The notes beneath the pieces were generated by a model. It saw only the letters and a list, made by a program, of their open reading frames with translations. It was not told where the DNA came from and did no database searches. Position numbers and translations under genes: made by a program. From an uncultured Deinococcales bacterium (GTDB lineage Bacteria > Deinococcota > Deinococci > Deinococcales > JAAFIG01), in assembly GCA_964244895.1 (NCBI GenBank), contig CAXTKV010000026.1, positions 1 to 36,505 on the forward strand: DNA of 36,505 nucleotides, in the 5' to 3' direction. Shown here in pieces: positions 331 through 36,330 of this stretch (within the stretch, counting starts at the first letter, position 1; every line of letters begins with the position of its first letter).

Positions 331-543
331 GCCCGGAGTCTAGCGCCGCAGACGGGTTTTTTCGGCATCCGAAACGACGATTCGCGCGATCGCTCGGGCG
401 CTTTTGGACTCGAACAAGCCGAGGTTTCGGCTCGAGATCGCGCTCTTGAGCCGAACGTCGCGTCCCCGCGTGCGAATGCGCTCAAGAAGTGCGCCTGGAA
501 TCTCGAGGATTCGCGCGGTTCCCCGAGAAGAACATTCAAGAAC

Positions 544-583
544 ACCGTCCAGCACGCAAATTGAAAGATGCGTGCTGGACGGT
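544..583. repeat. Intergenic palindromic element, 40-bp core (perfect 21-bp stem 538-558/569-589)
   Basis: ACCGTC cagc ACG N14 CGT gctg GACGGT. Confidence 0.9.
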
Positions 584-605
584 GTTCTTTCGCGTTGATC
601 GGACT

Positions 606-1343
606 TCAGATCTTGGCGAGCGCGCGCACCAGCGTCGGCTGGGCGGAACCGCCGTCGGGTTCTTCGGACATCGCGACCGCCACGGCGTCCTTCGGGATCA
701 CCACGGCCACGCTCGAGCCGGAGAACACGCCCAACGAGATCGGATTCTTCGCGTTTTTCGAGATGTACCACGCCTGCCAGGTCTTGCCCGAAGGCGCATT
801 GCCGAGCGTGTGACCGACCAGCACGCGACCGTCCGGCGCGACCACGACGCGCCCGGCGGGTTTGCCATCGGTCGTCTGGAACGCCAGGGTTCTCGCGCCA
901 GCGGTCTGCTGGATGGCGATCGGATCGAGGTTCGGCATTCCGGCGTTGCGAACCAGCGCGACCACCGCCAGGCTGGCCGCCAGTGCCGCGCCCGCCGCGA
1001 GGATCGTCCAGCGCGGCGTGGAGCGGGGCCGTGGGCGACTCGAACCGGGCGAGGCTTTGGTCTGCGCAGCGACCACCCCAGGGCTCGGCGCAATCGCGAC
1101 GGCGACCGAATCGCGTTCCGCGCGGAAGCGCGCCATGACCTTCGATTCCAGATCGGCGGGCGGTTCGAACTGCGGGACGCCCCGCGCGAGTTTCGCGGTC
1201 GTCTCGAGCTGCGTGCGCAGTTCCGCTCGGGCTTCCGGGTCGCGCTCGAGCAACTGCTCGACCTCTCGCGCCTCGATGGAATCGAGCGCGTTCAGCGCGT
1301 ACAGGGTTATTTGGTCGCGGTGGTCATCGGTGAGCATCATCAT
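606..1343 (-). CDS. Anti-sigma factor, RskA (anti-sigma-K) family
   Basis: N-terminal anti-sigma domain LYALNALD..E..EVE, PPADL linker, one TM helix (WTILAAGAALAASLAVVALV), C-terminal WQAW..PISLGVF..SEEPDGGSAQPT; true start may be ATG 1337. Confidence 0.85.
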   Translation of the reverse strand: MMMLTDDHRDQITLYALNALDSIEAREVEQLLERDPEARAELRTQLETTAKLARGVPQFEPPADLESKVMARFRAERDSVAVAIAPSPGVVAAQTKASPGSSRPRPRSTPRWTILAAGAALAASLAVVALVRNAGMPNLDPIAIQQTAGARTLAFQTTDGKPAGRVVVAPDGRVLVGHTLGNAPSGKTWQAWYISKNAKNPISLGVFSGSSVAVVIPKDAVAVAMSEEPDGGSAQPTLVRALAKI

Positions 1344-1358
1344 CCTCTTGCCCTGGTG

Positions 1359-1385
1359 TACGTCAGAACATACCCGATTGGATGC
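1359..1385 (-). promoter_or_regulatory. Putative ECF (SigK-like) promoter of the anti-sigma gene
   Basis: Minus strand GCATCC-N16-ACGTA just upstream of the RBS; resembles the CATCC...CG(A/T)A SigK-type architecture. Confidence 0.45.
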
Positions 1386-1521
1386 GGAAATTTCAAAGGA
1401 GAGAACGTGTGACCTCGCGCTGTGACACTATTCGTCGTTCGAGTACCGCGCGCCAAGGCGGGCTGAGCCCTTGGTTTGACGAACAAACCTGCTGCAGCGC
1501 AAAACCCGCTAACATGCACCC

Positions 1522-3180
1522 ATGACCAAAAATGACTGGCTCTCGAGCGCCTACGCCGAGGCGATTGCGCGCGTCCCGGAGCGCAAATTGAGCTTCCAGA
1601 CGATGTCCGGTATCGAACCGCAAGCCGTCTACACGCGCGATGACCTCGAGGGCGAATCCGGCAGCCTCGAGACTGCCGACAAACTCAACATGCCCGGCGA
1701 GTACCCGTTCACGCGCGGTGTGCAGCACACCAGTTACCGGGGGCGCTTGTGGACGATGCGGATGTTCGCGGGGTTCGGCAGCGCGGAGCAGACCAACGAA
1801 CGCTTTCACGCGCTCCTCTCGGCGGGCCAGACCGGGTTATCCACCGCGTTCGATCTGCCAACCTTGATGGGCTACGACTCCGATCACCCGTACAGCGTCG
1901 GTGAGGTCGGCAAGTGCGGCGTGGCGGTGTCATCTCTGGCCGACATGGAAATTCTGTTCGGCGGCGTGAACCTGGAAACCGTCACGACCAGCATGACCAT
2001 TAATTCGCCCGCCAGCGCGATCTGGGCGATGTACCTGGCCAACGCACAGAAGCAGGGTTTCAAACTCGAACACCTGGGCGGCACGATCCAGAACGACATC
2101 CTCAAAGAATTCATCGCGCAAAAAGAATTCATCTTCCCGCCCGACCCGAGCGTCAAACTGGTGATCGACACCTTCGAATGGGCGCCGCGCAACACGCCCA
2201 AATGGAACTTCATCAGCGTCTCCGGCTATCACATTCGCGAGGCTGGCAGCACCAACGTTCAGGAACTCGCCTTTACCCTGGCGGACGGCTTTCACTACAT
2301 CGAGGAAGCCATCAGGCGCGGCCTGGACGTGGACGAGTTCGCGCCCAGGATCAGTTTTTTCTGGGATGTCCACAACGATTTCTTCGAGGAAATTGCGAAG
2401 TTTCGCGCCGCCCGACGGATCTACGCCCGCGAAATGCGCCACCGCTACAACGCCAAAAACCCGAAATCCTGGATGCTGCGCACGCACGCGCAGACGGCGG
2501 GCGTCAGCTTGACCGCGCAGCAACCGTTGAACAACATCGCTCGCGTCGCGATCCAGGCGCTGGCCGCCGTGCTGGGCGGCACGCAGAGCTTGCACACCGA
2601 TTCCTTCGACGAGGCCCTGGCCTTGCCCACCGAGGAAGCCGCGACCATCGCCCTCAGAACCCAGCAGATCATCGCGCACGAATCCGGCGTGGCCGACGTG
2701 ATCGACCCGCTGGCGGGATCGTACTACCTCGAGAAACTGACCGACGAGGTTGAAAGCCGCGCGATGGTCTACATCGAAAAGATTCGCGCCCTGGGCGGCG
2801 TGACCCGCGCGCTCGAGGCCGGGTTCTTCGCCTCTGAAATCGGCGATGCGAGCTATCGATTCCAGCAGGAAGTGGATCGCAAGGAACGGTTGATCGTCGG
2901 CGTGAATGCGTTCACGGACGACAAACCGCTGTCCGTGCCGATTCAACTGGTGGACAAGAACGTCGAACGCGTGCAATCCGAACGCCTCGAGCGCGTGCGG
3001 CGCGAGCGCGACCCGATCCGGCACCGCGACGCCCTCGAGCACCTGCGGCGCGCCGCGACGCTCGGACAGAACACCATGCCCGCCTTCCTCGAGTGCGCCC
3101 ACGCCTACGCCACCGTCGGCGAGCAGATGGACGTGCTGCGCGAGGTCTACGGCGTCTACGAGGAACCCGTCGCGATTTGA
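1522..3180 (+). CDS. B12-dependent acyl-CoA mutase large (substrate-binding) subunit, methylmalonyl-CoA mutase family, isobutyryl-CoA mutase-like
   Basis: [50 protein letters not shown] motifs; no C-terminal DxHxxG B12-binding domain; TAACAT -10 at 1510-1515. Confidence 0.92.
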
Positions 3181-3195
3181 TGGATATCGCAGGAC

Positions 3196-3245
3196 ACCGT
3201 GCGGGACGGCATTCTCGCGAGATCGGGAAATGCGTCTGGGACGGT
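3196..3245. repeat. Intergenic element, 50-bp form
   Basis: ACCGTG cggg ACG N24 CGT ctgg GACGGT, followed by cttCTCGAG. Confidence 0.75.
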
Positions 3246-3297
3246 CTTCTCGAGACTGGCTTGAGGCGAGCCGCTGGCTCACATAAGATGAGGGTAG

Positions 3298-4440: not shown

Positions 4441-4453
4441 ACACAATCGGGCT

Positions 4454-5491: not shown

Positions 5492-5551
5492 GGGTTCATG
5501 CTAGAGCCTCGAGACACCGAGCGTCCAATGGGCGCGTGAAGACACCTTTTT

Positions 5552-5628
5552 TGGTGGGCCCGCCGGGACTTGAACCCGGAACCAACGGTTTATGAGACCG
5601 CTGCTCTAACCGATTGAGCTACAGGCCC
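5552..5628 (-). tRNA. tRNA with CAT anticodon, most likely tRNA-Ile2 (lysidine)
   Basis: GGGCCTGTAGCTCAATCGGTTAGAGCAGCGGTCTCATAAACCGTTGGTTCCGGGTTCAAGTCCCGGCGGGCCCACCA: cloverleaf, encoded CCA, C4-G69/C5-G68 pairs typical of Ile2, no initiator features. Confidence 0.92.
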
Positions 5629-5700: not shown

Positions 5701-5727
5701 GTTGCCTTGCGATGAGTTCGCGTAAAC

Positions 5728-5767
5728 ACCGTCCAGCACGCGAATTGCTTGTCGCGTCCAGGACGGT
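5728..5767. repeat. Intergenic element, 40-bp form
   Basis: ACCGTC cagc ACG N14 CGT ccag GACGGT gttCTCGAG. Confidence 0.9.
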
Positions 5768-6039
5768 GTTCTCGAGCACTCGACACGTTCGCCCCGGTTC
5801 AGTTTGCGGAACTCGAGTTCCGAAACGCGCACTGAAGAACGTCTGAGATGCGGAATCAGCATCGTTACCGGCGCGTTACCGGAACTTGCAGAGACTCATT
5901 TCAAGATCCCAGCCGAAAAAAACAGTAGCGGGGGATTGCAAAGAAAGGAGACAGAAGTACCGCAGGCAGGACGGGACGCCGGGGAAGCGCAGCACCCATC
6001 GCTCGCACGGAGGGAACGCCCCTCAAAAGGAGTTCAACC

Positions 6040-7676: not shown

Positions 7677-7778
7677 CACGCGGAATCCTCGGGATTGCCA
7701 GGTTCTTGAACGCTCGATGTTTCCCGCCTTGAGCTTTAATGCCGCCAACGAATCGTCGCGCCGAGCAGGTTGCAGAAA

Positions 7779-7828
7779 ACCGTCCAGAACGGTGTTCTTG
7801 GTTCCTCGAGACCTGCGTCCTGAACGGT
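7779..7828. repeat. Intergenic element, 50-bp form
   Basis: ACCGTC caga ACG N24 (contains CTCGAG) CGT cctg AACGGT; left arm is itself ACCGT-N5-ACGGT. Confidence 0.75.
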
Positions 7829-8045
7829 CCTTTCTGGCGTCAACCTCAGATCTGTCCAATTCGTTACCGCCTTCAATTTGCCCGGTGTCCAAAAAAGAGC
7901 GTACAAACGGCGGCGGACGCGCCATTTTCTGGTCTAAAGATCCTCGCCCGCGTGCGCGACATTCAAAAACCCCGTATCCTGTGGTCTCGAGACACCACAG
8001 TGGCGCCCGACCGTGCACTTCGCGGCGCACCGCGCAAGGAGCCAG

Positions 8046-9389: not shown

Positions 9390-9412
9390 CCCGCAGTGTG
9401 CCCCTCGAGAAT

Positions 9413-9452
9413 ACCGTCCAGCACGCGTTCATGAATTTGTGTACTGGACGGT
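9413..9452. repeat. Intergenic element, 40-bp form
   Basis: CTCGAGaat ACCGTC cagc ACG N14 TGT actg GACGGT, 24 bp after the glnA stop. Confidence 0.85.
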
Positions 9453-9651
9453 GCGCCGGGATGTGACTCGAGCACCATCGAGGATTCGCTCTGTGGGACT
9501 AACCGGAGTGCGCCACGAACTGAACGCTCGAGTCCGAGAACCGTATGCGACGCCCGGATGGGCGCTCGCTCCAGTCGTTTCGAACGATCCTCGAGCCGCA
9601 CGGAATCGGCTGAAAATGTGTGTCCTGAATATATCTATCCCCGATGAAAAC

Positions 9652-9708
9652 ACCGTTCCAAACGCGCTTTTCTCGAGCCAATGCGCGAAACATACCGTCG
9701 TGAACGGT
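9652..9708. repeat. Intergenic element, atypical 57-bp spacing
   Basis: ACCGTT ccaa ACG N31 CGT cgtg AACGGT; right arm is a full ACCGT-N5-ACGGT palindrome. Confidence 0.65.
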
Positions 9709-9782
9709 GTTCTTGGAACGTAAAACGCGATTTTAATTGACTGGTCAACGATTTCTCAAGACCAAATGTTTCACCCCTCGCA

Positions 9783-11116: not shown

Positions 11117-11311
11117 TTCGCTATAAACCCAGCCGATAGGCAGAGGGCTCGAGAACCGCGTCTCAGACGGTGCTGCTGATATTGAGCGTTGAGAAATTTG
11201 CCGAGATTGCGGACGATCACCCGGACGTGCGAACCCGAACCCACTTTTGAACCCGCACGCCGTCTCGAGTCACCCTGAAGCTCACCTGTCAGAACAAGAG
11301 AGGTCAAAAAC

Positions 11312-15337: not shown

Positions 15338-15396
15338 ACGGCAAAGCCGAACGGCTCGTGCGCGCTGCACTCTCTGGGAGCATCAACTTAAAGAAC

Positions 15397-15545
15397 ACCG
15401 TCCCACACGGTGCTGATCAACGAAACACCGTCCTGCACACGTTTTTAAGAAACGGTTCCTGAGTTTTCGGCGCTGGAAGGGATCTCGTTCGCTCGGGCCA
15501 ACACGTCTCAGAAAAGCCTGAACTCGAGAAACATCGTCCAGGACG
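15397..15545. repeat. Cluster of half-sites/monomers of the intergenic element
   Basis: AAGAACACCGTcccacACGGTG (15391-15412), AAACACCGTCctgcACA (core 15427, 30 bp after the first), AACATCGTCcaggACG (core 15533). Confidence 0.6.
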
Positions 15546-15680
15546 CCTAAAAACGATTTCCCGAAACCTGTCACGGTTCCGTCACGAATTCTCGACATGA
15601 GAAACCCGAATTGATAGACTCCGAGCGCTCGTTCGGAAAGCCGAAGAGGCTTTCGAGACAGCAAGACCTGAGGAGGTTGT

Positions 15681-17291: not shown

Positions 17292-17301
17292 GCCTGAAAA
17301 C

Positions 17302-17352
17302 ACCGTCCAGTACGTCGTTTCTACGAATTCAGAAACTCGCGTGCTGGACGGT
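17302..17352. repeat. Intergenic element, 51-bp form
   Basis: ACCGTC cagt ACG N25 CGT gctg GACGGT, 11 bp after the dppA stop. Confidence 0.85.
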
Positions 17353-17497
17353 GTGTTCACCAGTTCAAGCTTCGATGATCGATCTCGAGGACATGCGCTC
17401 AAACCTGCCGTAGAAACGGCAAAATGTTGAAAAGTGGAGTTCTCAGCGCACAGACCGAACTTTGCCTCGAGTCTCGAGTACAAAAAAGGAATTCATT

Positions 17498-18559
17498 TTG
17501 ACTGCTTACATTGCCAGACGCTTGCTCGGATTGATCCCGGTATTGTTCGGGATTTCATTGCTGGTCTTTAGCTTCGTCCACCTGATCCCCGGCGACCCCG
17601 CGCTGACCATGCTCGGCGAGCGCGCCACGCCAGAATCTACGGCTGCTGTGCGGAAGCTTCTGGGCCTGAACCAGCCGTGGTTTTTCAACCCGCAGGCCGC
17701 CGCGAAAACCGGAAACCCACTCGATTTTTTTGACGGTCAGTATTTTCGTTTCGTGGGAAACACCTTGCGCGGCAACCTGGGCGAGAGCATTTTCAGCCGG
17801 ATTCCCGTCGCTGACGAGGTCAAACGGCGCTGGCCGGCCACGTTGGAGCTTTCCATCGCCGCGATGATCTTCGCCGTCGTAGTAGGCGTTCTGATCGGCG
17901 TGCTGGCCGCGCTCCGGCGCAATTCCGTGGTGGACAACGCCAGCATGGCGCTCGCGCTGGTCGGCGTTTCGATGCCGATCTTCTGGCTCGGCATGATCCT
18001 CAAGTACATTTTCAGCGTGTACTCGCAGATCCTGCCGCCCTCGGCGCGGATCGGGGATATCTTCTCGTTGAGCTTCACGCCGCTGACGGGTTTGTACGTC
18101 CTGGACGGTTTGCTGCGCGGCCAACCGGCGGTATCCTGGGATGCGTTGTTGCACCTCTTCATGCCCGCCGTGGCGCTGGGCACGATCCCGATGGCGATCA
18201 TCGCGCGCATGACCCGCAGTGCCATGATCGAGGTGCTGAGTCAGGATTACGTCCGCACCGCCAGGGCCAAAGGCTTGCCGCAGCGCGCCGTCGTGATGAA
18301 GCACGCCCTCAGGAACGCCATGCTGCCCGTCATCACGGTGGTTGGCCTGTCGTTCGGCGGTTTGCTTTCGGGCGCGATATTGACCGAGACGATCTTTAGC
18401 TGGTCCGGCATCGGCAGCTGGATTTACGAGGGCATTCTGCAACGCGATTACCCGATCGTGCAGGGCGGCGTGATCATCGTCGCGGTCGTGTTCGTGCTGG
18501 TCAACCTGCTGGTCGATCTGTCGTACGCGCTCTTCGATCCGAGGATTCAGTACCGATGA
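17498..18559 (+). CDS. dppB: Peptide ABC transporter permease
   Basis: AAGGA RBS then TTG 17498; RRLLGLIPVL, IPGDPA, PATLEL, EAA loop DYVRTARAKGL..HALRNA, DPRI. Confidence 0.9.
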   Translation: MTAYIARRLLGLIPVLFGISLLVFSFVHLIPGDPALTMLGERATPESTAAVRKLLGLNQPWFFNPQAAAKTGNPLDFFDGQYFRFVGNTLRGNLGESIFSRIPVADEVKRRWPATLELSIAAMIFAVVVGVLIGVLAALRRNSVVDNASMALALVGVSMPIFWLGMILKYIFSVYSQILPPSARIGDIFSLSFTPLTGLYVLDGLLRGQPAVSWDALLHLFMPAVALGTIPMAIIARMTRSAMIEVLSQDYVRTARAKGLPQRAVVMKHALRNAMLPVITVVGLSFGGLLSGAILTETIFSWSGIGSWIYEGILQRDYPIVQGGVIIVAVVFVLVNLLVDLSYALFDPRIQYR

Positions 18560-19493: not shown

Positions 19494-19504
19494 AGCTCGA
19501 GAAC

Positions 19505-19544
19505 ACCGTCCAGCACGCATTCTTAGATTCGTGCGCTGGACGGT
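19505..19544. repeat. Intergenic element, 40-bp form
   Basis: CTCGAGaac ACCGTC cagc ACG N14 tgc gctg GACGGT gttc, directly after the dppC stop. Confidence 0.88.
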
Positions 19545-19598
19545 GTTCTTCAAAGGGGGTCTCGAGGAGCGGGTGCTTTTGACGGTATGCTCTGCGGC

Positions 19599-20906: not shown

Positions 20907-20915
20907 TCTCGAGAC

Positions 20916-20956
20916 ACCGTGCTGGACAGCGTTTGCTGGTATGCGTGCTGAACGGT
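20916..20956. repeat. Intergenic element, 41-bp form flanked by CTCGAG on both sides
   Basis: CTCGAG(20908)ac ACCGTG ctgg ACA N15 CGT gctg AACGGT gttt CTCGAG(20961). Confidence 0.8.
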
Positions 20957-21017
20957 GTTTCTCGAGTTCGTAACGTGGATGGCCACGCGTCGGAGCCATT
21001 CATTCTAGACTCGAGCC

Positions 21018-22391: not shown

Positions 22392-23852
22392 TCAATGTTT
22401 AACCAGCACCATGCCTGAACGCTGCGGGACGTGACCTAAAGTGCGCTTGCCGGAGCGCACCTCGAAGCGCGTTCCGCTGAAAAAATCGATGTACACGCCG
22501 TCGTCCACGCCATCGAGTGGCACGTTGTGCGTCCTCGTGTCCGCATTGATGACCACGATGGCCGTGCTGGAACCGTCGCTCAGTTTGCGCTCGAAGGCGT
22601 AAGTCATACCGTGCGCGTGAACCGTGCGGTACGCGCCGCGCCGCAGCGCCGGAATGGATTTGCGCATCCGAATCGCGGTTCTGGTGAAGTCCAGAATTTC
22701 AATGTTCCAACGCGCTTCGTCCCAGACCATGCCGCGCCGACAATCGGGATCGCGTCCGCCCTCCAGACCGATCTCGTCGCCGTAGTAAATGCACGGCGCG
22801 CCCGGAAAGCTCATCTGCACCAACGTCATGAGTTTCAACGCGCTGACATCGTTGTCAACGATCGAGAGCACGCGCGGCGTGTCGTGCGAGCCGAGCAAAT
22901 TGAGTTGCGCCAGCGTGATCTCCCAGGGGTACAGACTGAACAAGCGCTCCGTCTCGCGCGCGAAGCGTTCGGCATCCATGCTGCCCAGGTGCTTCAAGCC
23001 GGATTCCGCCGTGATGTCCTTACGGATCGTTTTTCCGGCCAGGAACTCGTAGGTGATGGTCGTGAAGATGTAATTCATGACCGCGTCGAACTGGTCGCCG
23101 GAGAGCCAGCGTTGCGCTTCCGTCCAGATTTCACCGACGATATACGCGTCCGGGTTGGCGCGCTTGACGCGCCGCCTGAACTCCTGCCAGAAGGCATCAT
23201 CATCGATCTCGTTGGGCACGTCCAGACGCCAGCCGTCCACGCCGAATTTGATCCAGTCCTCGGCCACGCCCCACAGAAATTCGCGCACGGCAGATGAAGC
23301 CGTGTTGAACTTCGGTAAGGCCGCGTAGCCCCACCAGGCGTCGTAATTCGGGGCTTCTCGCGGGTCGTAGGCGTGCAACGGGTGTCCCTTGACGTTGAAC
23401 CAATCCAGGTACGGGCTCTGCGGCCCATTCTCGAGGATGTCGTGAAACTGAAAAAACCCCCGCGAGGCGTGGTTAAAAACACCGTCCAGCACGACCCTGA
23501 TGCCTTTGGTGTGGGCGCGCGCGATCAGTTCCTTGAGGGCCGCGTTGCCGCCCAGCATCGGATCTACGCTGCGGTAATCGTGCGTGTGGTAGCGATGGTT
23601 TGACCCGGACTGGAAGACCGGGCAGAAGTAGATCGCGTTGACGCCCAGGTTCTCGAGGTGATCGAGCTTCTCGACCACACCCAGCAAATCCCCGCCCTTG
23701 TAGCCGTGAATCGTCGGTTTCGCGTCCCACTCCTCGAGCCCACCCGACTTCAGCACGCGAGAGGACGCGGCGAAGCGATCCGGGAAGATCTGATAGAAAA
23801 TCGCGTCCTTGACCCAATCGGGTGTGCTGATGCGGTTCTGAAGGTCTGACAC
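22392..23852 (-). CDS. GH13 neopullulanase/cyclomaltodextrinase-like alpha-glycosidase
   Basis: TPDWVKDAIFYQIFPDRF, LDGVFNH, GWRLDVP, GEIW, LGSHDT, YYGDEIG..DPDCRR; no N-terminal CBM; start set at GTG 23852 from TAAGAT-N7. Confidence 0.92.
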   Translation of the reverse strand: MSDLQNRISTPDWVKDAIFYQIFPDRFAASSRVLKSGGLEEWDAKPTIHGYKGGDLLGVVEKLDHLENLGVNAIYFCPVFQSGSNHRYHTHDYRSVDPMLGGNAALKELIARAHTKGIRVVLDGVFNHASRGFFQFHDILENGPQSPYLDWFNVKGHPLHAYDPREAPNYDAWWGYAALPKFNTASSAVREFLWGVAEDWIKFGVDGWRLDVPNEIDDDAFWQEFRRRVKRANPDAYIVGEIWTEAQRWLSGDQFDAVMNYIFTTITYEFLAGKTIRKDITAESGLKHLGSMDAERFARETERLFSLYPWEITLAQLNLLGSHDTPRVLSIVDNDVSALKLMTLVQMSFPGAPCIYYGDEIGLEGGRDPDCRRGMVWDEARWNIEILDFTRTAIRMRKSIPALRRGAYRTVHAHGMTYAFERKLSDGSSTAIVVINADTRTHNVPLDGVDDGVYIDFFSGTRFEVRSGKRTLGHVPQRSGMVLVKH

Positions 23853-24334
23853 GCGGTGCATCTTATCAAGGCCCAATCAAACGCACCTGCCGCCGCCCAT
23901 CGAGCCCGGTCACTCCGTGCGGAACGCCCGCCGCGAATTGACGGCTCAATGGGCTCGAGGTTTCGCTTCCAGCACGGTGTTCCAGGAGCCTCGTTACTGG
24001 GTCGTGACCGGAGCGGCGTTACCTTGCTGCTCGAGGCGCACACCATCAGGAGGTTCAGATGAACCGTTAGCGCACTGCGGCCATTGATCCAACCACAATT
24101 TCTATCAGCCGCATTTCTTCACGAATCGATGCCCTGCCCTCAGTTTTCAATTTTTTCAAAAATCTGAATAACCCGCGCTGGACGGTATATTAAACGCGTA
24201 GGGCTCGGGCAGATCCAGCAACGTGCAGGATCTTCACGGTACGAACCGGATTGCACGATTCGGGCAACAGACGCTCAACCCTCGAACACTTTTTTGTGAA
24301 GGCGCGCAATGCCTTCAACCACCCGGAGGTCAAC

Positions 24335-24778: not shown

Positions 24779-24796
24779 CGATCGGTTCCAGAAAAC

Positions 24797-24836
24797 ACCG
24801 TCCAGCGCGCAGAATTGATATTGCGTGCTGGACGGT
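24797..24836. repeat. Intergenic element, 40-bp form
   Basis: ACCGTC cagc GCG N14 CGT gctg GACGGT between convergent genes. Confidence 0.88.
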
Positions 24837-24953
24837 GTTTTTGGTGCGCCAGCGACTCGGGTTGCGCTCGGGCTGACTGAATCCTCGAGCTGCCTGCATC
24901 CTCGATGCGCTCGCGCCGACCATTCTCGAGATCGAGCAAACGCCGTGCATCGT

Positions 24954-25977: not shown

Positions 25978-25983
25978 GTGCGG

Positions 25984-26661
25984 GTGACCGCGCTCTTTGA
26001 ACGCATCGCCGCCGCTTACGTGCGCGGCAAGATCGGCTCAATTCTGCCAGAAGCGCTTTCCGGTTCGGCGCTCGAGACCTTGACCCCCGATGACCTGAGC
26101 GCGATCCTCGAGGCCGGACGCGAGGCCGGGTTGCGGTTGCACCGCTTCAAACGCACGATGGGTCTGGCGCGCGTGGAACGCGTGCTGGGAGCGCTGCGCG
26201 GTCTGGCTCCGATGCGTTTGCTGGACATCGGTTCCGGTCGGGGCGCGTTTTTGTGGCCGCTCCTGGACGCGATGCCGTGGCTCGAGATCACCGCCTGCGA
26301 CACCCTGGCGCACCGCGTGGCGGACATTCAAGCTGTCAGCGACGGCGGATTTCCCAACCTGACAGCGCGGCTCGAGGACGCCACCGAACTGTCCTTCCCG
26401 GACTCGAGTTTCGACGCGGTGACGGCGCTCGAAGTCCTCGAACACATTCCCGACGCGCAGCGCGCGGTTTCGGAGGCCGTCCGGGTCGCGCGGCGGTTCG
26501 TGATCGCCAGCGTGCCATCGCAGCCGGATGACAACCCGGAGCACATCCACCTCTTTTCCAATACGGACCTGACCCGAATGTTCCAAGCGGCGGGCACGGT
26601 GCGCGTCAGTCTGGATGCCGTGCTGAACCACTCGATCGTCGTGGCGCGGGTCGAGGCGTGA
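25984..26661 (+). CDS. Class I SAM-dependent methyltransferase
   Basis: LLDIGSGRG motif I, EDATELSFPDSSFDAV, LEVLEH, EHIHLF; stop overlaps the ligase start (GTGA). Confidence 0.88.
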   Translation: MTALFERIAAAYVRGKIGSILPEALSGSALETLTPDDLSAILEAGREAGLRLHRFKRTMGLARVERVLGALRGLAPMRLLDIGSGRGAFLWPLLDAMPWLEITACDTLAHRVADIQAVSDGGFPNLTARLEDATELSFPDSSFDAVTALEVLEHIPDAQRAVSEAVRVARRFVIASVPSQPDDNPEHIHLFSNTDLTRMFQAAGTVRVSLDAVLNHSIVVARVEA

Positions 26662-27437
26662 CCCCGCCGATTCGCAAATTCCCGCGCACACCGCACCTGG
26701 AAGGCTCGAGAATCCAGCCCGGCGATTCGCCGAACAGCGTCCCGTTTCACGAAATTCGCGGTCAGACCGTGGTGGTCGAGGAAAAAATGGATGGCGCGAA
26801 CGCCGCGATCTCGTTCGACGGCGGCAGATTGCTGCTTCAATCCAGAGGGCATTACCTGATCGGCGGCCCCCGAGAGCGCCACTTCGCACGGTTCAAAACC
26901 TGGGCGAACAGCCTGGTCGATGCCTTGCAGCCCGTGCTGGGCGAGCGCTACGTGATCTACGGCGAGTGGGTTTACGCCAAGCACACGATTTTCTACGACC
27001 GATTGCCGCATTACTTTCTGGTCTTCGACGCGCTGGACACCGTCCGGGACGCGTTCCTGGATACGCCGTCCAGGACGGCGTTGCTCGAGAATCTACCGCT
27101 CGCTTCCGTGCCAATTCTGGCCACGGGTGCGTTCCAGACGCCGGAATCGCTCTCGGCGCTGCTGGGCCGCTCGAGTTTCATCGGTCGGGATCACATCGCG
27201 GCGTTGCGCGAATCCTGCCTTCGGGACGGCCTCGAGCCCGCGCGAGTGGCGTCCGAAACGGACTCTTCCGAACTGATGGAAGGGCTCTACATCAAGCTCG
27301 AGCGGGACGGCGCGGTTCAGGCGCGCTACAAGTTCGTGCGCGCCAGCTTCCTTCAGGCCGTCACGCAGTCCGGTTCGCACTGGCTCGAGCGCCCGATCGT
27401 ACCGAACCTGCTCGCGCCGGGACGCTCCATCTGGTGA
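26658..27437 (+). CDS. ATP-dependent RNA ligase family protein (adenylation domain only)
   Basis: KFPRTPHL, motif I EEKMDGAN, QSR, motif III YGEW, IIIa FLVFD, IV MEGLYIK, V YKFV. Confidence 0.88.
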   Translation: MTPPIRKFPRTPHLEGSRIQPGDSPNSVPFHEIRGQTVVVEEKMDGANAAISFDGGRLLLQSRGHYLIGGPRERHFARFKTWANSLVDALQPVLGERYVIYGEWVYAKHTIFYDRLPHYFLVFDALDTVRDAFLDTPSRTALLENLPLASVPILATGAFQTPESLSALLGRSSFIGRDHIAALRESCLRDGLEPARVASETDSSELMEGLYIKLERDGAVQARYKFVRASFLQAVTQSGSHWLERPIVPNLLAPGRSIW

Positions 27438-27456
27438 ACCGGAGAGTCCGGGAAAT

Positions 27457-27507
27457 ACCGTCTGGGACGATCAACATTGAATTCTCGAGGATACTGTCGT
27501 GGACGGT
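27457..27507. repeat. Intergenic element, 51-bp form
   Basis: ACCGTC tggg ACG N25 (contains CTCGAG) TGT cgtg GACGGT. Confidence 0.8.
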
Positions 27508-27573
27508 ATTTTTGAGGGTACGGCTCGAATTCTTCGACGATGGCGAACGTACCCGCGCGGGTAAGCTGTCCTG

Positions 27574-28707
27574 GTGAACGACTGGACGTTTCCCCTCTGC
27601 CCGGACGCCCCATCCTGGCGGATCGACTGGGACGCGATCGTCGTCCGCCACGCGTGGCTGACGGCCCTTGGTCGGACGCCCCAGAATCCCGTCCATCACG
27701 CCGAAGGCGACGTGCTGATCCACACCAGGATGGTGACACAAGCGCTGGTCGCCAACCCCGAATGGCGCGATCTGGCGCCGACGCCGCGCTCGATTTTGTT
27801 CGCGGCAGCCCTGCTGCACGATATCGGCAAGCCCGACAAGACCATCACGGAAGACGACGGGCGCATCACCTCCAAGGGTCACGCCTCGGCGGGTGCGCGC
27901 ACCGCGCAACGCATCCTGATGCTCGAGATGGACGCCCCGGTTCCGTTCGAGGCGCGCCTCGCCATCGTGGCGCTGGTGCGTCACCACGGGCTGCCGTTGT
28001 GGTTCCTCGAGCGCGCCGACCCTGCCCGCGCCGCGATCGAGGCGAGCCTGCGGGTGCGCCCCGACTGGATCGCGCTGCTGGCCGAAGCCGACGCCAGGGG
28101 CCGCATCTGCCGCGACGGGAACGAACTCGTGGCTCGGGTCGGGCTGTTCCGCGAGTTCTGCGCGGAACGCGACTGCCTGATCCAACCGTTCCCGTTCGCG
28201 TCCGACCACAGCCGCTTCGTGTACTGCCGCACCCCGGGCCGCGACCCCGCCTACCGCGCTTTCGACGACACCAAAGGCGCCGTTTTGATGATGTCCGGCC
28301 TGCCCGGTTCCGGCAAGGACACGTACCTGAAAACCCACCACCCGGACTGGCCGAGCGTCCATTTGGACGGTATCCGCCACGAATTGGGCGTGTCGTGGAC
28401 GGACAATCAAGGCCCCGTCTTACAGCTCGCCAGGGAGCGCGCCAGGGGCTTCTTGCGCAACCGCACGAGCTTCGCCTGGAACGCCACCAACCTGACGCGC
28501 AGCGTGCGCGAGGGGCTGATCGGCCTGTTCACCGATTACGGCGCGCGCACCGAGATCGCGTACCTCGAGCCCTGCCTCGAGAAGATATTTCGACAGAACC
28601 GCGAACGCGAGGCGGTCGTCAACCAGAGCGTCATGCTCGATCTCGTCGCGAAGCTGGAAGTGCCCGACCTGACCGAAGCCCAGACCGTCCTGTACTCGAC
28701 GCAATGA
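27574..28707 (+). CDS. HD-domain phosphoesterase fused to P-loop polynucleotide kinase (HD-Pnk)
   Basis: HHAEGDVLIHT, LLHDIGKP, GHA, RHHG, EAD (HD); GLPGSGKDT, LDGIR, NATN, R..R lid (Pnk/AAA_33); TAAGCT-N6-GTG. Confidence 0.88.
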   Translation: MNDWTFPLCPDAPSWRIDWDAIVVRHAWLTALGRTPQNPVHHAEGDVLIHTRMVTQALVANPEWRDLAPTPRSILFAAALLHDIGKPDKTITEDDGRITSKGHASAGARTAQRILMLEMDAPVPFEARLAIVALVRHHGLPLWFLERADPARAAIEASLRVRPDWIALLAEADARGRICRDGNELVARVGLFREFCAERDCLIQPFPFASDHSRFVYCRTPGRDPAYRAFDDTKGAVLMMSGLPGSGKDTYLKTHHPDWPSVHLDGIRHELGVSWTDNQGPVLQLARERARGFLRNRTSFAWNATNLTRSVREGLIGLFTDYGARTEIAYLEPCLEKIFRQNREREAVVNQSVMLDLVAKLEVPDLTEAQTVLYSTQ

Positions 28708-28797: not shown

Positions 28798-28810
28798 ACC
28801 CTCGAAGACT

Positions 28811-29851: not shown

Positions 29852-29955
29852 GTTGATCTCCTTCACATTGCCCGCCTCGAGGGTGCGCGGTCGTGGCTGA
29901 ATCTTACGTCTCGAGGTGGTGCGGGTTCGTTAGACAGGTTCGGTTTTATCCGAAG

Positions 29956-29993
29956 ATCGTCCAGCACGCAATTAAAACGCTTTGCTGGACGGT
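29956..29993. repeat. Intergenic element, degenerate 38-bp form
   Basis: ATCGTC cagc ACG ... gctg GACGGT gttt; further degenerate ACCATC-N4-ACG half-sites at 30060 and 30096. Confidence 0.7.
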
Positions 29994-30119
29994 GTTTCTT
30001 ATAAATCCGACTTTCTCTCGCCACGGTCAGGAGCGCGGCAGGTCGAGATCTCGAGAAAAACCATCCCCGACGGGCGCTCGAGCATTTTCGAGGACACCAT
30101 CGGGGACGCTGCAACGGTC

Positions 30120-31166: not shown

Positions 31167-31237
31167 GGTTCCCTCCGTGTACTTCGGCAAGACGCGTTGC
31201 TCGAGCATCCCAGGCCCGAGGTTGACAGAAGCCTGAC

Positions 31238-32125: not shown

Positions 32126-32198
32126 TAGCGATCACCTTTTCTCGAGAACGCGTGAAAAGACCGTTCTTGCTCGAATGACAGCACCTGACGGGCTACTC

Positions 32199-32238
32199 GC
32201 GCTCCTGCACACGAACTCGAGCATGCGTCCAGGACGGT
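32199..32238. repeat. Intergenic element, 40-bp form with decayed left arm
   Basis: GCGCTC ctgc ACA N14 (contains CTCGAG) CGT ccag GACGGT gttctc; extra half-site TGT gtga GACGGT attCTCGAG at 32337-32358. Confidence 0.65.
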
Positions 32239-32400
32239 GTTCTCTTGAGATTCGATGCGCGGCATTGGCTCCAGCGCGAGGGCGAACACCAGGTTCGCCC
32301 CTCCAGCATTGGTGCGTCGCTGGTTCTTATTTTGATTGTGTGAGACGGTATTCTCGAGCATCAATGTTCGAGAAATCACCCTCGAGACGAAGCTCTTCTC

Positions 32401-32428
32401 CCTGACCTCTGACCCCTGACCCCTGACC
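32401..32428. repeat. Heptamer tandem repeat (YCTGACC)x4
   Basis: cctgacc tctgacc cctgacc cctgacc immediately downstream of the potB stop. Confidence 0.8.
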
Positions 32429-32432
32429 AGCT

Positions 32433-33374
32433 TCACAGCAGATCACGCATCCCCTGCTCGCCCACGCGCCGGGAATAGACGTACAGCACGGTCAGCGTCA
32501 GGCCCATCACCAGGAAGCTGATGGCCGCGCCGAACGGCCAATCGCGGGACGATCCGAACTGTTGCGCGATGGCGTTCCCGACCAGAGATGTCTTCGCGCC
32601 GCCGAGAAGATCCGGCACGACGTACATGCCGAAGGCGGGAATGGCGGTCAGAATGATGCCCGCCACCAGTCCGGGCAGGGTTTGCGGCAACAGCACCTGC
32701 CAGAACGCCTGCCACTTGGACGCGTACAAGTCCTGCGCGGCCTCGAGCAAACTCCAGTCCAGGCGCTCTACTGCGGTGTACAGGGGTAGCACCAGGAACG
32801 GTAGAAAAATATTGACCATCCCCAGGTAAACCGCGAAGGCGCTCGGGTACAGGCCCTCGCCTTCCCCGACAATGCCCAACGTTCGGGCGATCACGGTGAT
32901 CGGTGCGTCCGGGTTCAGCACGATCATCCAGGCGTAGGTTCTGATCACCAGGTTGATCCACGACGGCGCGATCACCAGGAGCAACAGCGTGTTGCGGGCG
33001 CGCGGGCCGTGCGCCGCGATGAAAAACGATAGGGGGTAGGCCATCAGCACACAGAAGAACGTCGTAATGACCGCCACCAGCACGCTGCGCCCGACGATCT
33101 GCCAGTACGCCGGGTCGTATCCCAGCACGTCCCAGCCCGCGAAGCGCACGTAATTGTCCGGCGTCAACGGGGTCGTCACGCCGCCCAACGCGTCTCGAGT
33201 CAGGAACGAATAAACCAGCAAAATCAGTCCGGGCAGAATCAAAAAGAGCGCGATCCAGAACACGCCCGGCCCCGCCGTGATGGCCGCCCTGGCCAGCAGT
33301 TGCGCGCGGTTCAGCACTTCGCCACCGGCGGGCGTCAGGTCGGATTTGGGCGCGCTTCGCGTCGGCGCAGCCAT
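32433..33374 (-). CDS. potB: Polyamine ABC transporter permease
   Basis: AYPLSFFIA, PSWINLVIRTYAW, LPFLVLPLY, LLEAAQDLYA, PDLLGG, RDWPFGAA. Confidence 0.92.
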   Translation of the reverse strand: MAAPTRSAPKSDLTPAGGEVLNRAQLLARAAITAGPGVFWIALFLILPGLILLVYSFLTRDALGGVTTPLTPDNYVRFAGWDVLGYDPAYWQIVGRSVLVAVITTFFCVLMAYPLSFFIAAHGPRARNTLLLLVIAPSWINLVIRTYAWMIVLNPDAPITVIARTLGIVGEGEGLYPSAFAVYLGMVNIFLPFLVLPLYTAVERLDWSLLEAAQDLYASKWQAFWQVLLPQTLPGLVAGIILTAIPAFGMYVVPDLLGGAKTSLVGNAIAQQFGSSRDWPFGAAISFLVMGLTLTVLYVYSRRVGEQGMRDLL

Positions 33375-33394
33375 CAGCGATCACCCTCGAGAAC

Positions 33395-33445
33395 ACCGTC
33401 TGGGACGGCATTCCGATCATGCTCGAGAATCGCGTGCGGGACGGT
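33395..33445. repeat. Intergenic element, 51-bp form
   Basis: CTCGAGaac ACCGTC tggg ACG N25 (contains CTCGAG) CGT gcgg GACGGT. Confidence 0.85.
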
Positions 33446-33457
33446 TGTCCGGTGAGG

Positions 33458-33539
33458 CTCGAGCCTCGAGCCGCAAGCCGCAAGGGCCAGATTATCCCTT
33501 GCCGATCGGTGTCTGACCTCTGACCCCGTGACTCGTGAC
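33458..33539. repeat. Two heptamer tandem runs
   Basis: ctcgagc ctcgagc cgcaagc cgcaagg (33458-33485) and tctgacc tctgacc ccgtgac tcgtgac (33512-33539) downstream of the potA stop. Confidence 0.65.
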
Positions 33540-33543
33540 CGAC

Positions 33544-34758
33544 TCACACGCCCTCGAGTTCTTCGGCGCGCAACGCCTCTCCGCCCGAGATGACCACCAG
33601 GTGCTGAGGCGGCAAGTGCGCCACGACCGTCTCGCCGGGTTCAAAATCGTGACTTTCCAGGCCGGTGTTCATGACCTCGACGGACAGCTCGAAATGGTCT
33701 GTGCACAGCAGACGGTATTCGTTTTCGGCGCCGGAATAGATTTCGTCGGTGACGGTGGCTTTCAGCTGGTTGGGTGCGCTTCCGAAACCCTGCCGGGAAA
33801 TCTGGACTTTCTCCGGTCGGATCGAGAGCCGCACAGAACCTGATGAAGGCAGCGAATCTGCCACCACGAGCTCGCCCAGGTCGGTCTTGACGCGATTCGC
33901 GCCCGTGACCTTGCCGTCCAGCAGGTTGGATGATCCCAGGAACTTCGCCACGAACGGGGTTGCGGGGCGCTCGTAGATTTCCTCGCAGCCGCCGAGTTGC
34001 TCGATCACGCCCTTGTTCATGACCGCGATCCGGTCGGACATGGTCAGCGCCTCTTCCTGATCGTGGGTCACGAAGATAAACGTCAATCCCAACTGCTGTT
34101 GCAAGCGCATCAGTTCGACTTGCAACGACATCCGCAATTTTCTGTCCAGCGCGCTCAGCGGTTCGTCCAGCAGCAAGACCTGCGGTTCGTTGACCAGCGC
34201 CCGCGCCAGCGCCACGCGTTGCCGCTGACCGCCGGAAAGTTCCGCCGTCCGGCGTTTGGCGAACGCGCCGATCTCGACCATTTCGAGGGCGCGCTCGACC
34301 CTGGATTTGATTTCAGCGTTCGGAACCTTGCGCATTTTCAGTCCAAACGCCACGTTGTCCGCGACCGTCATGTGCGGGAAGAGCGCATAAGACTGAAAGA
34401 CCGTGTTGACGCTGCGCTGGTTGGGCGGCAGTTTGCTGACCTCCTGACCGCGCAAGAAGACCTCTCCGGCGTCCTGGAACTCGAAGCCCGCCAGAATCCG
34501 CAGCAGGGTCGTCTTGCCGCACCCCGACGGCCCCAGCAGACTGAAGAACTCGCCGCGCCGTATCTCGAGGTTGATGCCCTTCAGGACGGGGTTCTCTCCG
34601 AAGGATTTGGTGATGTCCTTGAAGTGAACGTCCACCGCGCTCTCGAGCTGCCGTTTGCGCCGTTCGGCCTGGTTGATCGCGGTCACGTCTGCCTCCGATG
34701 GCCTGAAATCTCGAGCGCTGCCGTTGTCCCTTCGCTCATGGACGGGATTATGCGTCAT
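33544..34758 (-). CDS. potA: Polyamine ABC transporter ATP-binding protein
   Basis: GPSGCGKTT, NTVFQSYALFPHM, LSGGQRQRVALARAL, LLDEPLSALD, THDQEEAL, TOBE-like C-terminus. Confidence 0.94.
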   Translation of the reverse strand: MTHNPVHERRDNGSARDFRPSEADVTAINQAERRKRQLESAVDVHFKDITKSFGENPVLKGINLEIRRGEFFSLLGPSGCGKTTLLRILAGFEFQDAGEVFLRGQEVSKLPPNQRSVNTVFQSYALFPHMTVADNVAFGLKMRKVPNAEIKSRVERALEMVEIGAFAKRRTAELSGGQRQRVALARALVNEPQVLLLDEPLSALDRKLRMSLQVELMRLQQQLGLTFIFVTHDQEEALTMSDRIAVMNKGVIEQLGGCEEIYERPATPFVAKFLGSSNLLDGKVTGANRVKTDLGELVVADSLPSSGSVRLSIRPEKVQISRQGFGSAPNQLKATVTDEIYSGAENEYRLLCTDHFELSVEVMNTGLESHDFEPGETVVAHLPPQHLVVISGGEALRAEELEGV

Positions 34759-34824
34759 GCCGAGCCGATCTGTACAGCTAGGCGGGACGACCCGATCCGA
34801 ATCGGATGACGAAAACCCGAGAAC

Positions 34825-34865
34825 ACCGTCTGGGACGATATCCTCGAGATTGCGTGTGGGACGGT
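34825..34865. repeat. Intergenic element, 41-bp form
   Basis: ACCGTC tggg ACG N15 (contains CTCGAG) CGT gtgg GACGGT, 4 bp from the aminotransferase stop. Confidence 0.85.
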
Positions 34866-34869
34866 GTAT

Positions 34870-36228
34870 TTACGCGAAGGCTTCGGTTAGCGCGTCCGTG
34901 GCGATGCTGACGATTTCGTCCACCTGATCGGCGGTGATGATCAACGGCGGCGAGAACGCGAAGCCCGTGTCGTTGCAGCGCGCGATCAGGCCGCGTTTTC
35001 GCGTGGCCGCCTGCAACTTGCCGCCGACGCCCGCGCTCGGATCGAAAGACTTCTTGGATTCTTTGTCCTGCACGGTCTCAATCAGCACCATCAAGCCCTT
35101 GCCGCGCACGTTCCCGACGTTCGGGTGCGCCTCGAGCGTTTTCATGCCCGCCAGCAGACGCTCGCCCATGAATGCCGCGTTCCCCGGCAGATCCTCGCGC
35201 TCGATCAACCCGATGTTCACGAGCGCGACCGCGCACGCGACCGGATGACCGGAGTAGGTGAAGCCGTGCATGAACATCCGATCCGGTTCCAGCAGCACGG
35301 CGTTGATCTCGTCCGTGATGCCGACCGCCCCGAGCGGGATGTAACCGCTCGTGATGCCCTTGGCGAGCGCCACGATGTCGGGCTGGAAGTGGTACGTCTG
35401 ATGGCCGAACATGCCGCCCGTGCGCCCGAAGCCCGTGATGACCTCGTCCGCGATCAAGAGAATGCCGTGCTTTTTCAGGATCGGCGCGATGGCCTGCCAG
35501 TACCCATCTGGCGGTGGCACGACCCCGCCTGCGCCCTGCACGGGCTCGCCGATGAAAGCCGCGATCGTCTCGGCTCCTTCGTTGGCGATCGTGTCCTCGA
35601 GTTCCTGCGCGAGCTTCGCCACGAATTCCGCGTCCGTCAAGCCCGCGCCGTTCCGGTAGGCGTGAGGTGCCGACAGGTGAATGAAGCCCGGAGCCAACGG
35701 CCCGAAATCCTTGTGGTACGCCGGAATGCCCGTCGCCGCCAGGCTCGCGTTGGCGATGCCGTGGTAGGCCATCAGCCTGGACAGCACCTTGACGCGCTCT
35801 GGCTGGCCTTTTAAGGCCCAGTAGTACCGCGCGATCTTGATGGCGGTCTCGTTCGATTCCGCGCCGCCGGACGTGAACTGAAAGTGGTTGATGGTGCCCG
35901 GAATCATGCTCGCCAGCTTCGAGGCGAGTTCAATCGTGGGTGGGCTGGCCAGCCCGAAGAAGTTCGGCACGAACGCCACTTCCTCGATTTGCTTTCTGGC
36001 CGCCTCCGCCAGCACCTTGCGCCCGTGCCCGACGTTGACGTTCCACAAGCCCGCGAAGCCGTCCAGGTAACGCTTTCCGGTCGTGTCCCAGAGGTACAGG
36101 CCCTCGCCTCTGGCCAGCACCAGCGGCCCGGTTTTCGCGTGCCTGTGCAGGTTCGTGACGGGATGTAGGATGTGCGCGATGTCCTGCGCGATCAGCGCTT
36201 CCGTGTTCCAGCTTTGCGTGGCAGTCAT
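34870..36228 (-). CDS. Class III PLP aminotransferase (putrescine/omega-amine transaminase-like)
   Basis: YLDGFAGLWNVNVGHGR, SGGAESNE, GEPVQGAGG, IADEVITGFGRTG, PDIVALAKG, HGFTYSGHP; lies upstream of potABCD. Confidence 0.9.
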   Translation of the reverse strand: MTATQSWNTEALIAQDIAHILHPVTNLHRHAKTGPLVLARGEGLYLWDTTGKRYLDGFAGLWNVNVGHGRKVLAEAARKQIEEVAFVPNFFGLASPPTIELASKLASMIPGTINHFQFTSGGAESNETAIKIARYYWALKGQPERVKVLSRLMAYHGIANASLAATGIPAYHKDFGPLAPGFIHLSAPHAYRNGAGLTDAEFVAKLAQELEDTIANEGAETIAAFIGEPVQGAGGVVPPPDGYWQAIAPILKKHGILLIADEVITGFGRTGGMFGHQTYHFQPDIVALAKGITSGYIPLGAVGITDEINAVLLEPDRMFMHGFTYSGHPVACAVALVNIGLIEREDLPGNAAFMGERLLAGMKTLEAHPNVGNVRGKGLMVLIETVQDKESKKSFDPSAGVGGKLQAATRKRGLIARCNDTGFAFSPPLIITADQVDEIVSIATDALTEAFA

Positions 36229-36290
36229 GGCTCGAGTCTACGGTTTTGGACGCTCGGGGCACAATCCGTTCATGTCTTCTCTTCGAGAAC

Positions 36291-36330
36291 ACCGTCGTAC
36301 ACGCATTCTCGAGATTGCGTCTGGGACGGA
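36291..36330. repeat. Intergenic element, 40-bp form
   Basis: ACCGTC gtac ACG N14 (contains CTCGAG) CGT ctgg GACGGA. Confidence 0.8.

Follow-up and report, generated by a model that had tools for sequence, protein, structure and literature searches.

The window, by which we mean the whole stretch of 36,505 nucleotides from an uncultured Deinococcales bacterium, carries a palindromic element in most of its intergenic gaps, and an earlier note left it as either a mobile repeat family or a protein-binding landmark. We asked what this element is. It consists of two imperfect palindromes of 21 bp each, spaced 25 or 35 bp apart, and it occurs at about 2,000 places in the genome. Our explanation of choice, which we hold tentatively, is that these pairs are phased double-stranded docking sites for an abundant host chromosome protein, a dimer of dimers, and that they are kept at intervals along the chromosome.

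All 24 positions named earlier bear the motif or a decayed form of it (Table 1). Both arms were called in 15 of the 16 copies described as two-armed, with centre-to-centre spacings of 25, 35, 25, 35, 25, 42, 36, 25, 26, 25, 36, 23, 36, 26, and 25 bp; at 32199 the right arm alone is called. The motif is also present at the supposed half-sites, but 15397 and 15427 form one pair (30 bp) and 30060 and 30096 another (36 bp; scores 11 and 16). The window holds further copies, namely a pair in the RNA-ligase gene and single arms in dppB and an amylase-family gene.

Table 1. Copies of the element in the window, with positions counted from its first letter
Feature	Position	Strand	Context	Remark
Pair, 25 bp	538..589		Convergent gap	Scores 32/32
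Pair, 35 bp	3190..3251		3' of methylmalonyl-CoA mutase gene
Pair, 25 bp	5722..5773		Upstream of tRNA gene (5555-5628, minus)
Pair, 35 bp	7773..7834			Direct arm orientation
Pair, 25 bp	9407..9458		3' of glnA
Two sites, 42 bp apart	9646..9714			Minor class
Single site	11151..11177	-		Score 17
Two sites, 30 bp apart	15391..15447	+	3' of livF	Minor class
Single site	15527..15553	+	Upstream of dppA	Score 24
Pair, 36 bp	17296..17358		dppA-dppB gap	Core unchanged in a relative
Single site	18089..18115	-	Within dppB	Score 17
Pair, 25 bp	19499..19550		dppC-aroA gap
Pair, 26 bp	20910..20962		aroA-msrA gap
Strong single site	23475..23501	+	Within amylase-family gene	Score 27
Weak single site	24166..24192	-		Score 13.5
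Pair, 25 bp	24791..24842		Convergent gap, 3' of lipoprotein gene
Pair, 26 bp	27033..27085		Within RNA-ligase gene	Length unchanged vs 2/2 homologs
Pair, 36 bp	27451..27513		3' of RNA-ligase gene
Pair, 23 bp	29950..29999			Shortened
Decayed pair, 36 bp	30054..30116			Scores 11/16
Strong right arm and decayed left arm, ~25 bp off	32193..32244
Single site	32329..32355	-		Score 17
Pair, 36 bp	33389..33451		potA-potB gap
Pair, 26 bp	34819..34871		3' of aminotransferase gene
Pair, 25 bp	36285..36336		Upstream of aminotransferase gene

Genome-wide, a weight matrix derived from the genome itself (arms called at a score of 16 or more) resolves each arm into an A-rich flank, a CGT-N5-ACG core, and a T-rich flank. 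Conservation is highest inside the arm and fades outward, and a sharp end is absent. The spacer had been described as free in length; instead, the distance between neighbouring arms is 24–26 or 34–37 bp in 1,846 of 1,976 cases, and the means of the two classes, 25.12 and 35.23 bp, differ by 10.1 bp, about one helical turn. Pairs account for 1,916 of 2,711 loci, many single sites have a weak partner arm at 25, 26, 35, or 36 bp, and triples of arms are nearly absent. At the 35-bp spacing the arms are in direct orientation in 177 of 572 pairs, which is expected of a dyad site and unexpected of a fold-back unit. Pairs inside genes fall into the same two classes (27 of 35), some of them having formed without a change in length.

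The assembly (328 contigs, 91% complete) contains 4,423 arms, 93% of them intergenic, against 11 called with the reversed matrix, and an exact 15-mer pattern has 2,006 matches, compared with 5 when it is read backwards. The motif is genome-wide and does not arise by chance. A two-arm pattern has 867 matches here and 0–2 per genome in 363 others from the phylum, as expected of the lineage-specific repeat family proposed earlier. No analogous motif of different sequence was seen in nine family genomes (11–100 kb each), and the element had no match in a viral sequence collection and, with a strict pattern, none in metagenomes. A loose pattern found at least 119 metagenomic loci, two of which, among the matches listed, look like relatives; in a genome contig collection at least one match, chance-like, was among those listed. 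Rfam at gathering score matched only a tRNA in the window, and a search of part of the literature returned no description of the motif or its phasing. The element is absent from accessory islands. Inverted pairs are unique in 1,353 of 1,359 cases, and copies differ on average by 7.86 positions against 9.03 in column-shuffled sets, so that they are closer to one another than shuffled copies are.

Placement follows gene ends, as judged by home-made gene calls. The proximity to stop codons noted earlier holds, with distances of 10, 11, 9, 23, 18, and 4 bp past dppA, dppC, aroA, glnA, the lipoprotein gene, and the aminotransferase gene, and in long convergent gaps a pair lies within 35 bp of a stop codon in 119 of 195 cases. 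Arm density is 6.4/kb in convergent gaps against 2.7/kb in divergent ones, 334 of 639 divergent gaps contain the element, and promoters are avoided. This extragenic distribution near 3' ends, in convergent and codirectional gaps, is that of REPs, for which 3'-end placement and dimer spacers of similar length but variable sequence are described in the accessible part of PMC3733652. Along 118 site-rich contigs the spacing between sites has a coefficient of variation of 0.606, compared with 0.672±0.015 after permutation; exclusion between neighbouring gaps was significant in only one of seven distance bins. In-gene sites occupy site-poor stretches: for the 20 of 34 in-gene pairs that could be assessed, the nearest intergenic site is 1,139 bp away, compared with 558 bp for random coding points (p=3e-5).

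Separately, the genome contains 21,883 copies of CTCGAG, mostly coding and also on element-free contigs, and the same excess occurs without the element in all nine family genomes sampled. The GAG/CTC framing that had been ascribed to the element is therefore partly a by-product of this family-wide excess. Any likeness to HIP1-type iterated palindromes applies to CTCGAG and not to the element.

Genes that contain copies bear on how these arose. Alignment of nine in-gene pairs, from 9 of 34 genes, gave five without a unit-length change, one clean insertion, and three in length-variable loops. Length is unchanged at the pair in PheT (against 5 of 5 relatives), MiaA and PriA (7 of 7 each), and the RNA ligase (2 of 2 homologs); the Nqo3-like gene is unchanged against one of two relatives and three residues longer than the other. 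The P-type ATPase gene, by comparison with 7 of 7 relatives, has a clean insertion of 17 residues (51 bp), one unit's length, and whole units can therefore be put in. Between dppA and dppB, a relative's contig has 0 changes in the 51 positions of the core and 16 in the other 155 positions of the gap (p=0.014). In a more distant relative, two of two orthologous genes are followed by 25-class pairs whose spacers differ; in all, relatives retain site positions at three orthologous loci. Neither empty paralogous sites, sought in this genome and in 781 kb of relatives' loci, nor target-site duplications at copies were found.

The arms match each other only weakly. In the 35 class they pair no better than with shuffled partners (4.60 against 4.59 mismatches), and where both arms depart from consensus at the centre base they agree in 83 of 258 pairs of the 35/36 class; mirror matching is seen to some extent in the 25 class (112 of 196). 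Within-arm covariation is absent (mutual information ≤0.015 bit). On both strands the folding energy of pairs is about -25 to -30 kcal/mol, without strand bias; there is no U-tract, and G-U is not in excess on the sense strand (1,707 G-U, 1,900 A-C). The element thus lacks the U-tract and the selection for a sense-strand hairpin that mark an intrinsic terminator.

It is possible that the element descends from REP/REPIN-like doublets, a two-length unit spread by an enzyme that was lost or lies in the unassembled 9%, and that the copies, by now old, are maintained at the ends of genes as RNA hairpins or protein sites. We consider this rather unlikely. In common with REP doublets of the GTAG and CGTC superfamilies (BIME/REPIN), as far as the accessible text of the sources goes, the element is extragenic, densest in convergent gaps near 3' ends, mostly an inverted dimer, lineage-restricted, and sometimes within genes; the hugging of stop codons even in long gaps, the one-unit insertion in the P-type ATPase gene, the folding energy of about -27 kcal/mol, and the mirror matching of the 25 class also agree with such an origin. 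However, each arm has a dyad of only 3–4 bp and no unpaired foot, whereas CGTC REPs have a stem of 8–9 bp (PMC3733652, accessible part); GTAG is absent from the profile, as had been observed, and CGTC is found within the dyad, in mirrored form. No Y1/RAYT transposase (PF01797) was matched in the 91%-complete assembly, although RAYT association is described there for GTAG families only, no paralog family exceeds five members, and there is no expanded transposase family. Young identical copies, target duplications, and empty paralogous sites are all absent, five in-gene pairs arose without unit-length insertion, and direct pairs share the same spacing, quantised by one helical turn. A MITE with terminal repeats bound by a DDE transposase would account for the inverted arms with a variable stretch between them and for the one-unit insertion, but the missing sharp end, target duplication, identical young copies, and expanded transposase family make it highly improbable. 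Of the two possibilities raised earlier, a landmark is the better fit, given the quantised spacing, unique copies, lack of target duplication, and sites written into genes by substitution; some mobility may nevertheless be involved, since the copy in one gene is a clean insertion of a single unit.

Uptake-sequence drive, in which DNA with a phased pair is preferentially taken up or recombined so that molecular drive fills the genome, is in our estimation unlikely. The resemblance to Neisseria DUS and Pasteurellaceae USS is nevertheless broad: about 2,000 loci, fairly even spacing, filling of voids, scarcity in acquired DNA, origin by substitution as well as by gap-facing insertion, writing into permissive protein regions, and frequent inverted pairs after genes (PMC2397512; PMC7811141; 10.1101/2025.10.24.684340, each in its accessible part). 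The genome also has four pilin-like and several ComEA-like genes, judged by eye; the ComP-type receptor pilin PF16732 had no match here or in any control genome. The known signals, however, are single 9–10 bp cores of which one copy suffices (PMC2397512, accessible part), whereas the unit here is a 21-bp palindrome that almost always comes as a pair in fixed phase, with 93% of arms lying between genes, and drive alone does not predict stop-codon hugging. Protein roadblocks on DNA that replace Rho against untranslated or antisense transcription appear very unlikely. Sites do follow stop codons and fill long voids, and Rho was found in 60 of 60 relatives and not in this assembly; but the gene immediately downstream of rho in seven family genomes has an ortholog here that is cut off by the start of contig C149, and the ortholog of rho's other neighbour is missing as well. 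The blank is therefore probably an assembly gap, and loss of Rho as the cause is not supported. The genome encodes an XRE protein (C77:2266-2655) that we take to resemble DdrO. An expanded form of the DdrO operator of Deinococcus (RDRM), which is a 17-bp palindrome with AT flanks in repair-gene promoters, would explain the GT-N5-AC dyad geometry shared with the published consensus (PMC8533742, accessible part). We nevertheless reject it as scarcely credible, since a separate RDRM-like set with AT-rich flanks (21 non-coding matches) precedes repair genes, among them recQ and, by eye, ssb, uvrD, and gyrB, whereas the element has other flanks, roughly a hundredfold more copies, and a position away from promoters.

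Under the docking-site reading, a putative host protein would bind the double-stranded pair as two dimers in fixed helical phase. Selection would likely keep one pair per ~2 kb of core chromosome, and the role of the sites may be to organise the chromosome, or to insulate it, where one gene borders on the next. They would arise by point substitution at near-matches and sometimes when a complete unit of 52 or 62 bp is copied in. No binding-protein candidate was found among 20 XRE hits in the genome, and no regulator stands out among 67 genes with sites near their start; a basic 159-residue protein with a lysine-rich tail was rejected because it is family-wide (12 of 18). Like the sites of matS/MatP, SlmA, Noc, and parS, these would be palindromic double-stranded sites for a dimeric protein, with no tie to gene regulation. 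Those sites number in the tens and mark one region, whereas the element has thousands of sites, in phased pairs, throughout core DNA. A stronger version, which we regard as somewhat unlikely, is a chromatin lattice in which a lineage-specific putative tetramer occupies ~2,700 phased pairs and sets a boundary every ~2 kb, with selection on spacing rewriting essential enzymes (PheT, MiaA, PriA) in site-less stretches.

To our knowledge, sequence-specific bacterial chromosome proteins use tens of sites, and no requirement for helically phased pairs is known for motifs that occur in thousands, such as REPs and uptake sequences. The docking-site reading predicts a binding rule in which pairs at 25 and 35 bp bind together and pairs at 30 bp do not. 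The spacing histogram and the void-filling tests are also cheap screens for similar lattices that are now filed as REP-like in the genomes of other organisms. Should the element instead be an uptake signal, its host would lie outside Neisseriaceae and Pasteurellaceae; if a protein reads the lattice, it would give this lineage its own handle on the division of the chromosome at the scale of genes.

The dispersed palindromic element is a real, lineage-specific family of phased site pairs, a lattice probably kept by selection, and on re-examination of the sequence the motif was present at every position in the window named by the earlier note. The window comprises all of contig C26. A DdrO-like gene, RDRM-like operators and a best hit in Deinococcus point to the phylum Deinococcota. 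The genome (G000; 5.12 Mb in 328 contigs, 62.7% GC, 91% complete) is the sole representative of its genus in our comparison, and its 4,544 genes were predicted with a home-made hexamer model whose calls agree with NCBIfam matches in the window. When an arm, one imperfect palindrome, was defined by a weight-matrix score of at least 16, the proposed genome-wide scan returned 4,423 arms against 11 by the reversed control matrix, and 4,109 of the 4,423 are intergenic by these gene calls. Grouping gives 2,711 loci: 1,916 two-armed pairs, 766 singles and 29 loci with three or four sites. The suspected restriction to one lineage was borne out, as the two-arm pattern occurs 867 times in G000 and zero to two times in each of 363 other genomes of the phylum, with any match at all in 15 of them. 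The element is also carried by relatives, namely those represented by the X1 contigs (approximately 89%–94% identity to G000) and by L226, a metagenome locus from a more distant relative (79%–90%). A literature search of incomplete coverage found no account of the motif.

An arm spans approximately 21 bp and forms an imperfect dyad, in which the weight matrix has an A-rich outer flank, a CGT-N5-ACG core centred on pyrimidine-N-purine, and a T-rich inner flank; conservation is highest in the core and declines toward the outside. The 1,976 spacings between neighbouring sites of a locus, measured centre to centre, fall mainly into two classes, with 1,011 of 24–26 bp (short class, mean 25.12) and 835 of 34–37 bp (long class, mean 35.23), and minor peaks at 30–31 bp (55) and 40–43 bp (49). 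The variant one base longer is commoner in the long class (36 bp, 211; 35 bp, 572) than in the short class (26 bp, 140; 25 bp, 852), as would be expected if the period were a little over 10. Of the 572 pairs at 35 bp, 177 are in direct orientation. Single arms often have a weak partner at the usual class offsets, and the third site of a triple is mostly 30–32 or 37–43 bp away. Two protein dimers held at a fixed helical phase typically leave such a signature, a step of ten bases with the middle sequence free, and by analogy the same rule may apply to the G000 pairs.

At the dppA-dppB gap of one X1 contig, none of 51 core bases had changed versus 16 of 155 in the rest of the gap (p = 0.014; one locus); just outside the core, one base of the flank differs and one base is inserted. 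Both genes of L226 are followed by a 25-bp pair; the G000 orthologs have 25 and 26 bp, and the spacers differ. Gaps in G000 mostly hold exactly one locus (variance approximately one-third to one-half of the mean), and convergent gaps average about one locus, not two. Sites occur behind stop codons and at the centre of divergent gaps, and are scarce just before start codons. Across 118 site-rich contigs, loci are spaced more evenly than when permuted among gaps of like type and length (CV 0.606 versus 0.672 ± 0.015), and 3.0% of neighbours are less than 600 bp apart versus 5.8% permuted; direct exclusion from one gap to the next reaches significance in only one of seven distance bins. Pairs within genes keep a greater distance to intergenic sites than coding positions drawn at random (1,139 versus 558 bp; p = 3e-5 for the 20 of 34 that could be tested), and strong single arms are likewise distant (51 arms, p = 5e-5). 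The 53 voids above 6 kb, totalling 545 kb, are largely accessory DNA, partly as judged by eye; examples are a BREX island and gene clusters for sugar use.

The earlier note had left the choice between a mobile repeat and a protein-binding landmark; the latter fits better, and in its behaviour the element comes closest to a protein landmark in high copy. Mobility is less probable: we detected neither target duplication at pairs, nor an empty paralogous site, nor a Y1 transposase in the 91% complete assembly. No paralog family of more than five members was found in G000, and the inverted pairs are almost all unique in sequence (1,353 of 1,359). The strongest column linkages across copies are local or between mirror positions, and nearest-neighbour copies differ somewhat less from each other than those of column-shuffled sets. 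Predicted genes contain 34 pairs, nine of which were aligned with homologs. Length is unchanged in PheT (5/5 relatives), MiaA (7/7), PriA (7/7) and the RNA ligase of the window (2/2 homologs); the Nqo3-like gene matches one homolog in length and is three residues longer than the other. In PheT, the arm is spelled exactly at four altered residues that are elsewhere shared or similar among relatives. The pair sits in length-variable loops in MetH, an LpxD-like gene and an E2 gene, and in a CopA-like ATPase it is a 17-residue insertion relative to 7/7 relatives, one short-class unit long. In-gene pairs thus come about both by substitution and by insertion of a unit. Arms are mostly weaker where no indel occurred. 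The RNA ligase has no match in five family genomes, and the E2 gene has a match in one of 18.

In the family relatives G001 (L085), G010 (L005), G009 (L014) and G004 (L038-L039), GTAG-type REP hairpins and tandem heptamers stand in gaps that hold the paired site in G000, and the same E2 linker contains a REP doublet in G001. That the element is itself a domesticated REP-like doublet is unlikely in our estimation, and uptake-sequence drive slightly more so; neither has a known need for phased pairs. An RNA hairpin was also considered. Among 1,065 codirectional pairs, G-U was not enriched at mismatched stem positions on the sense strand (1,707 versus 1,900 A-C), and long-class arms pair no better than with shuffled partners. 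Compared with shuffles inside each context class, the short class shows little difference (z −2.6 to +1.8), and the long class does no better or does worse (z +0.3 to +3.7); neither a U-tract nor strand bias in folding energy was seen at pairs. An incidental RNA role is possible, given identical centre bases in 112 of the 196 short-class pairs in which both are non-consensus, a predicted folding energy of approximately −25 to −30 kcal/mol for every pair, and the stop-codon proximity described previously, which recurs in 119 of 195 pairs in long convergent gaps of G000.

The rho gene was not found in G000 and is present in 60/60 relatives. The gene downstream of rho in seven family genomes maps to a G000 gene truncated at the start of contig C149, and the ortholog of the upstream neighbour is likewise missing; an assembly gap at this contig end is therefore the simpler cause, and probably the correct one. 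The element resembles the RDRM, the DdrO operator, in the GT-N5-AC geometry of the published consensus (PMC8533742). This candidate was rejected, as a separate AT-flanked RDRM-like set stands before repair genes in G000; among its 21 non-coding matches is one ahead of recQ and, as judged by eye, others ahead of ssb, uvrD, gyrB and further genes.

CTCGAG occurs 21,883 times in G000 and at 4.7–6.2 per kb in all nine family genomes sampled (L024-L043). In 608 arms the outer flank overlaps a copy, and the density of CTCGAG is normal on element-free contigs (correlation −0.06). This excess is family-wide, HIP1-like and separate from the element. In these ten genomes the copies are mostly in frame 0 of genes, and most other 6-bp palindromes are avoided.

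Locations of features observed alongside the element
Feature	Location	Observation
Methyltransferase, RNA ligase and AAA_33 kinase genes	window 25978-28707	Consecutive; RNA-repair-like operon; ligase ~50% identical to plasmid proteins, yet already bears a site pair
Two loci with similar flanks	G000:C1:31480 and C31:19652	Heptamer repeats; a 35-class and a 25-class pair, sequences differ
BREX genes	L108/L047 = G000:C50/C256	brxL and DUF3732 on an element-free contig; pglX homolog on a separate contig, strong pair inside gene
DdrO-like gene	G000:C77:2266-2655	
CRISPR array	G000:C36:30800-32100	CTCGAG within repeat; contig element-poor
Basic 159-residue protein	L104:295-774 (G000:C258)	Strong codon bias; lysine/alanine-rich tail; no Pfam match; in 12/18 family genomes, weakly in 2 Deinococcus-family genomes; possible unnamed nucleoid protein

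By the features tested, the element belongs to none of the GTAG/CGTC REP, MITE, DUS/USS and RDRM families (see PMC3733652, PMC12306157, PMC2397512, PMC7811141 and 10.1101/2025.10.24.684340). Its lengthwise arrangement is most likely explained, if tentatively, by an abundant host protein that would bind each dyad as a dimer, with two dimers cooperating at 25 or 35 bp. We used matS, SlmA, Noc and parS as comparison systems. Under this reading, sites would be tolerated behind stop codons and midway through divergent gaps and excluded just before start codons, and selection would make them recur approximately every 2 kb. Such spacing may serve to compact the DNA, to insulate transcription or supercoils, or to mark the DNA as self.
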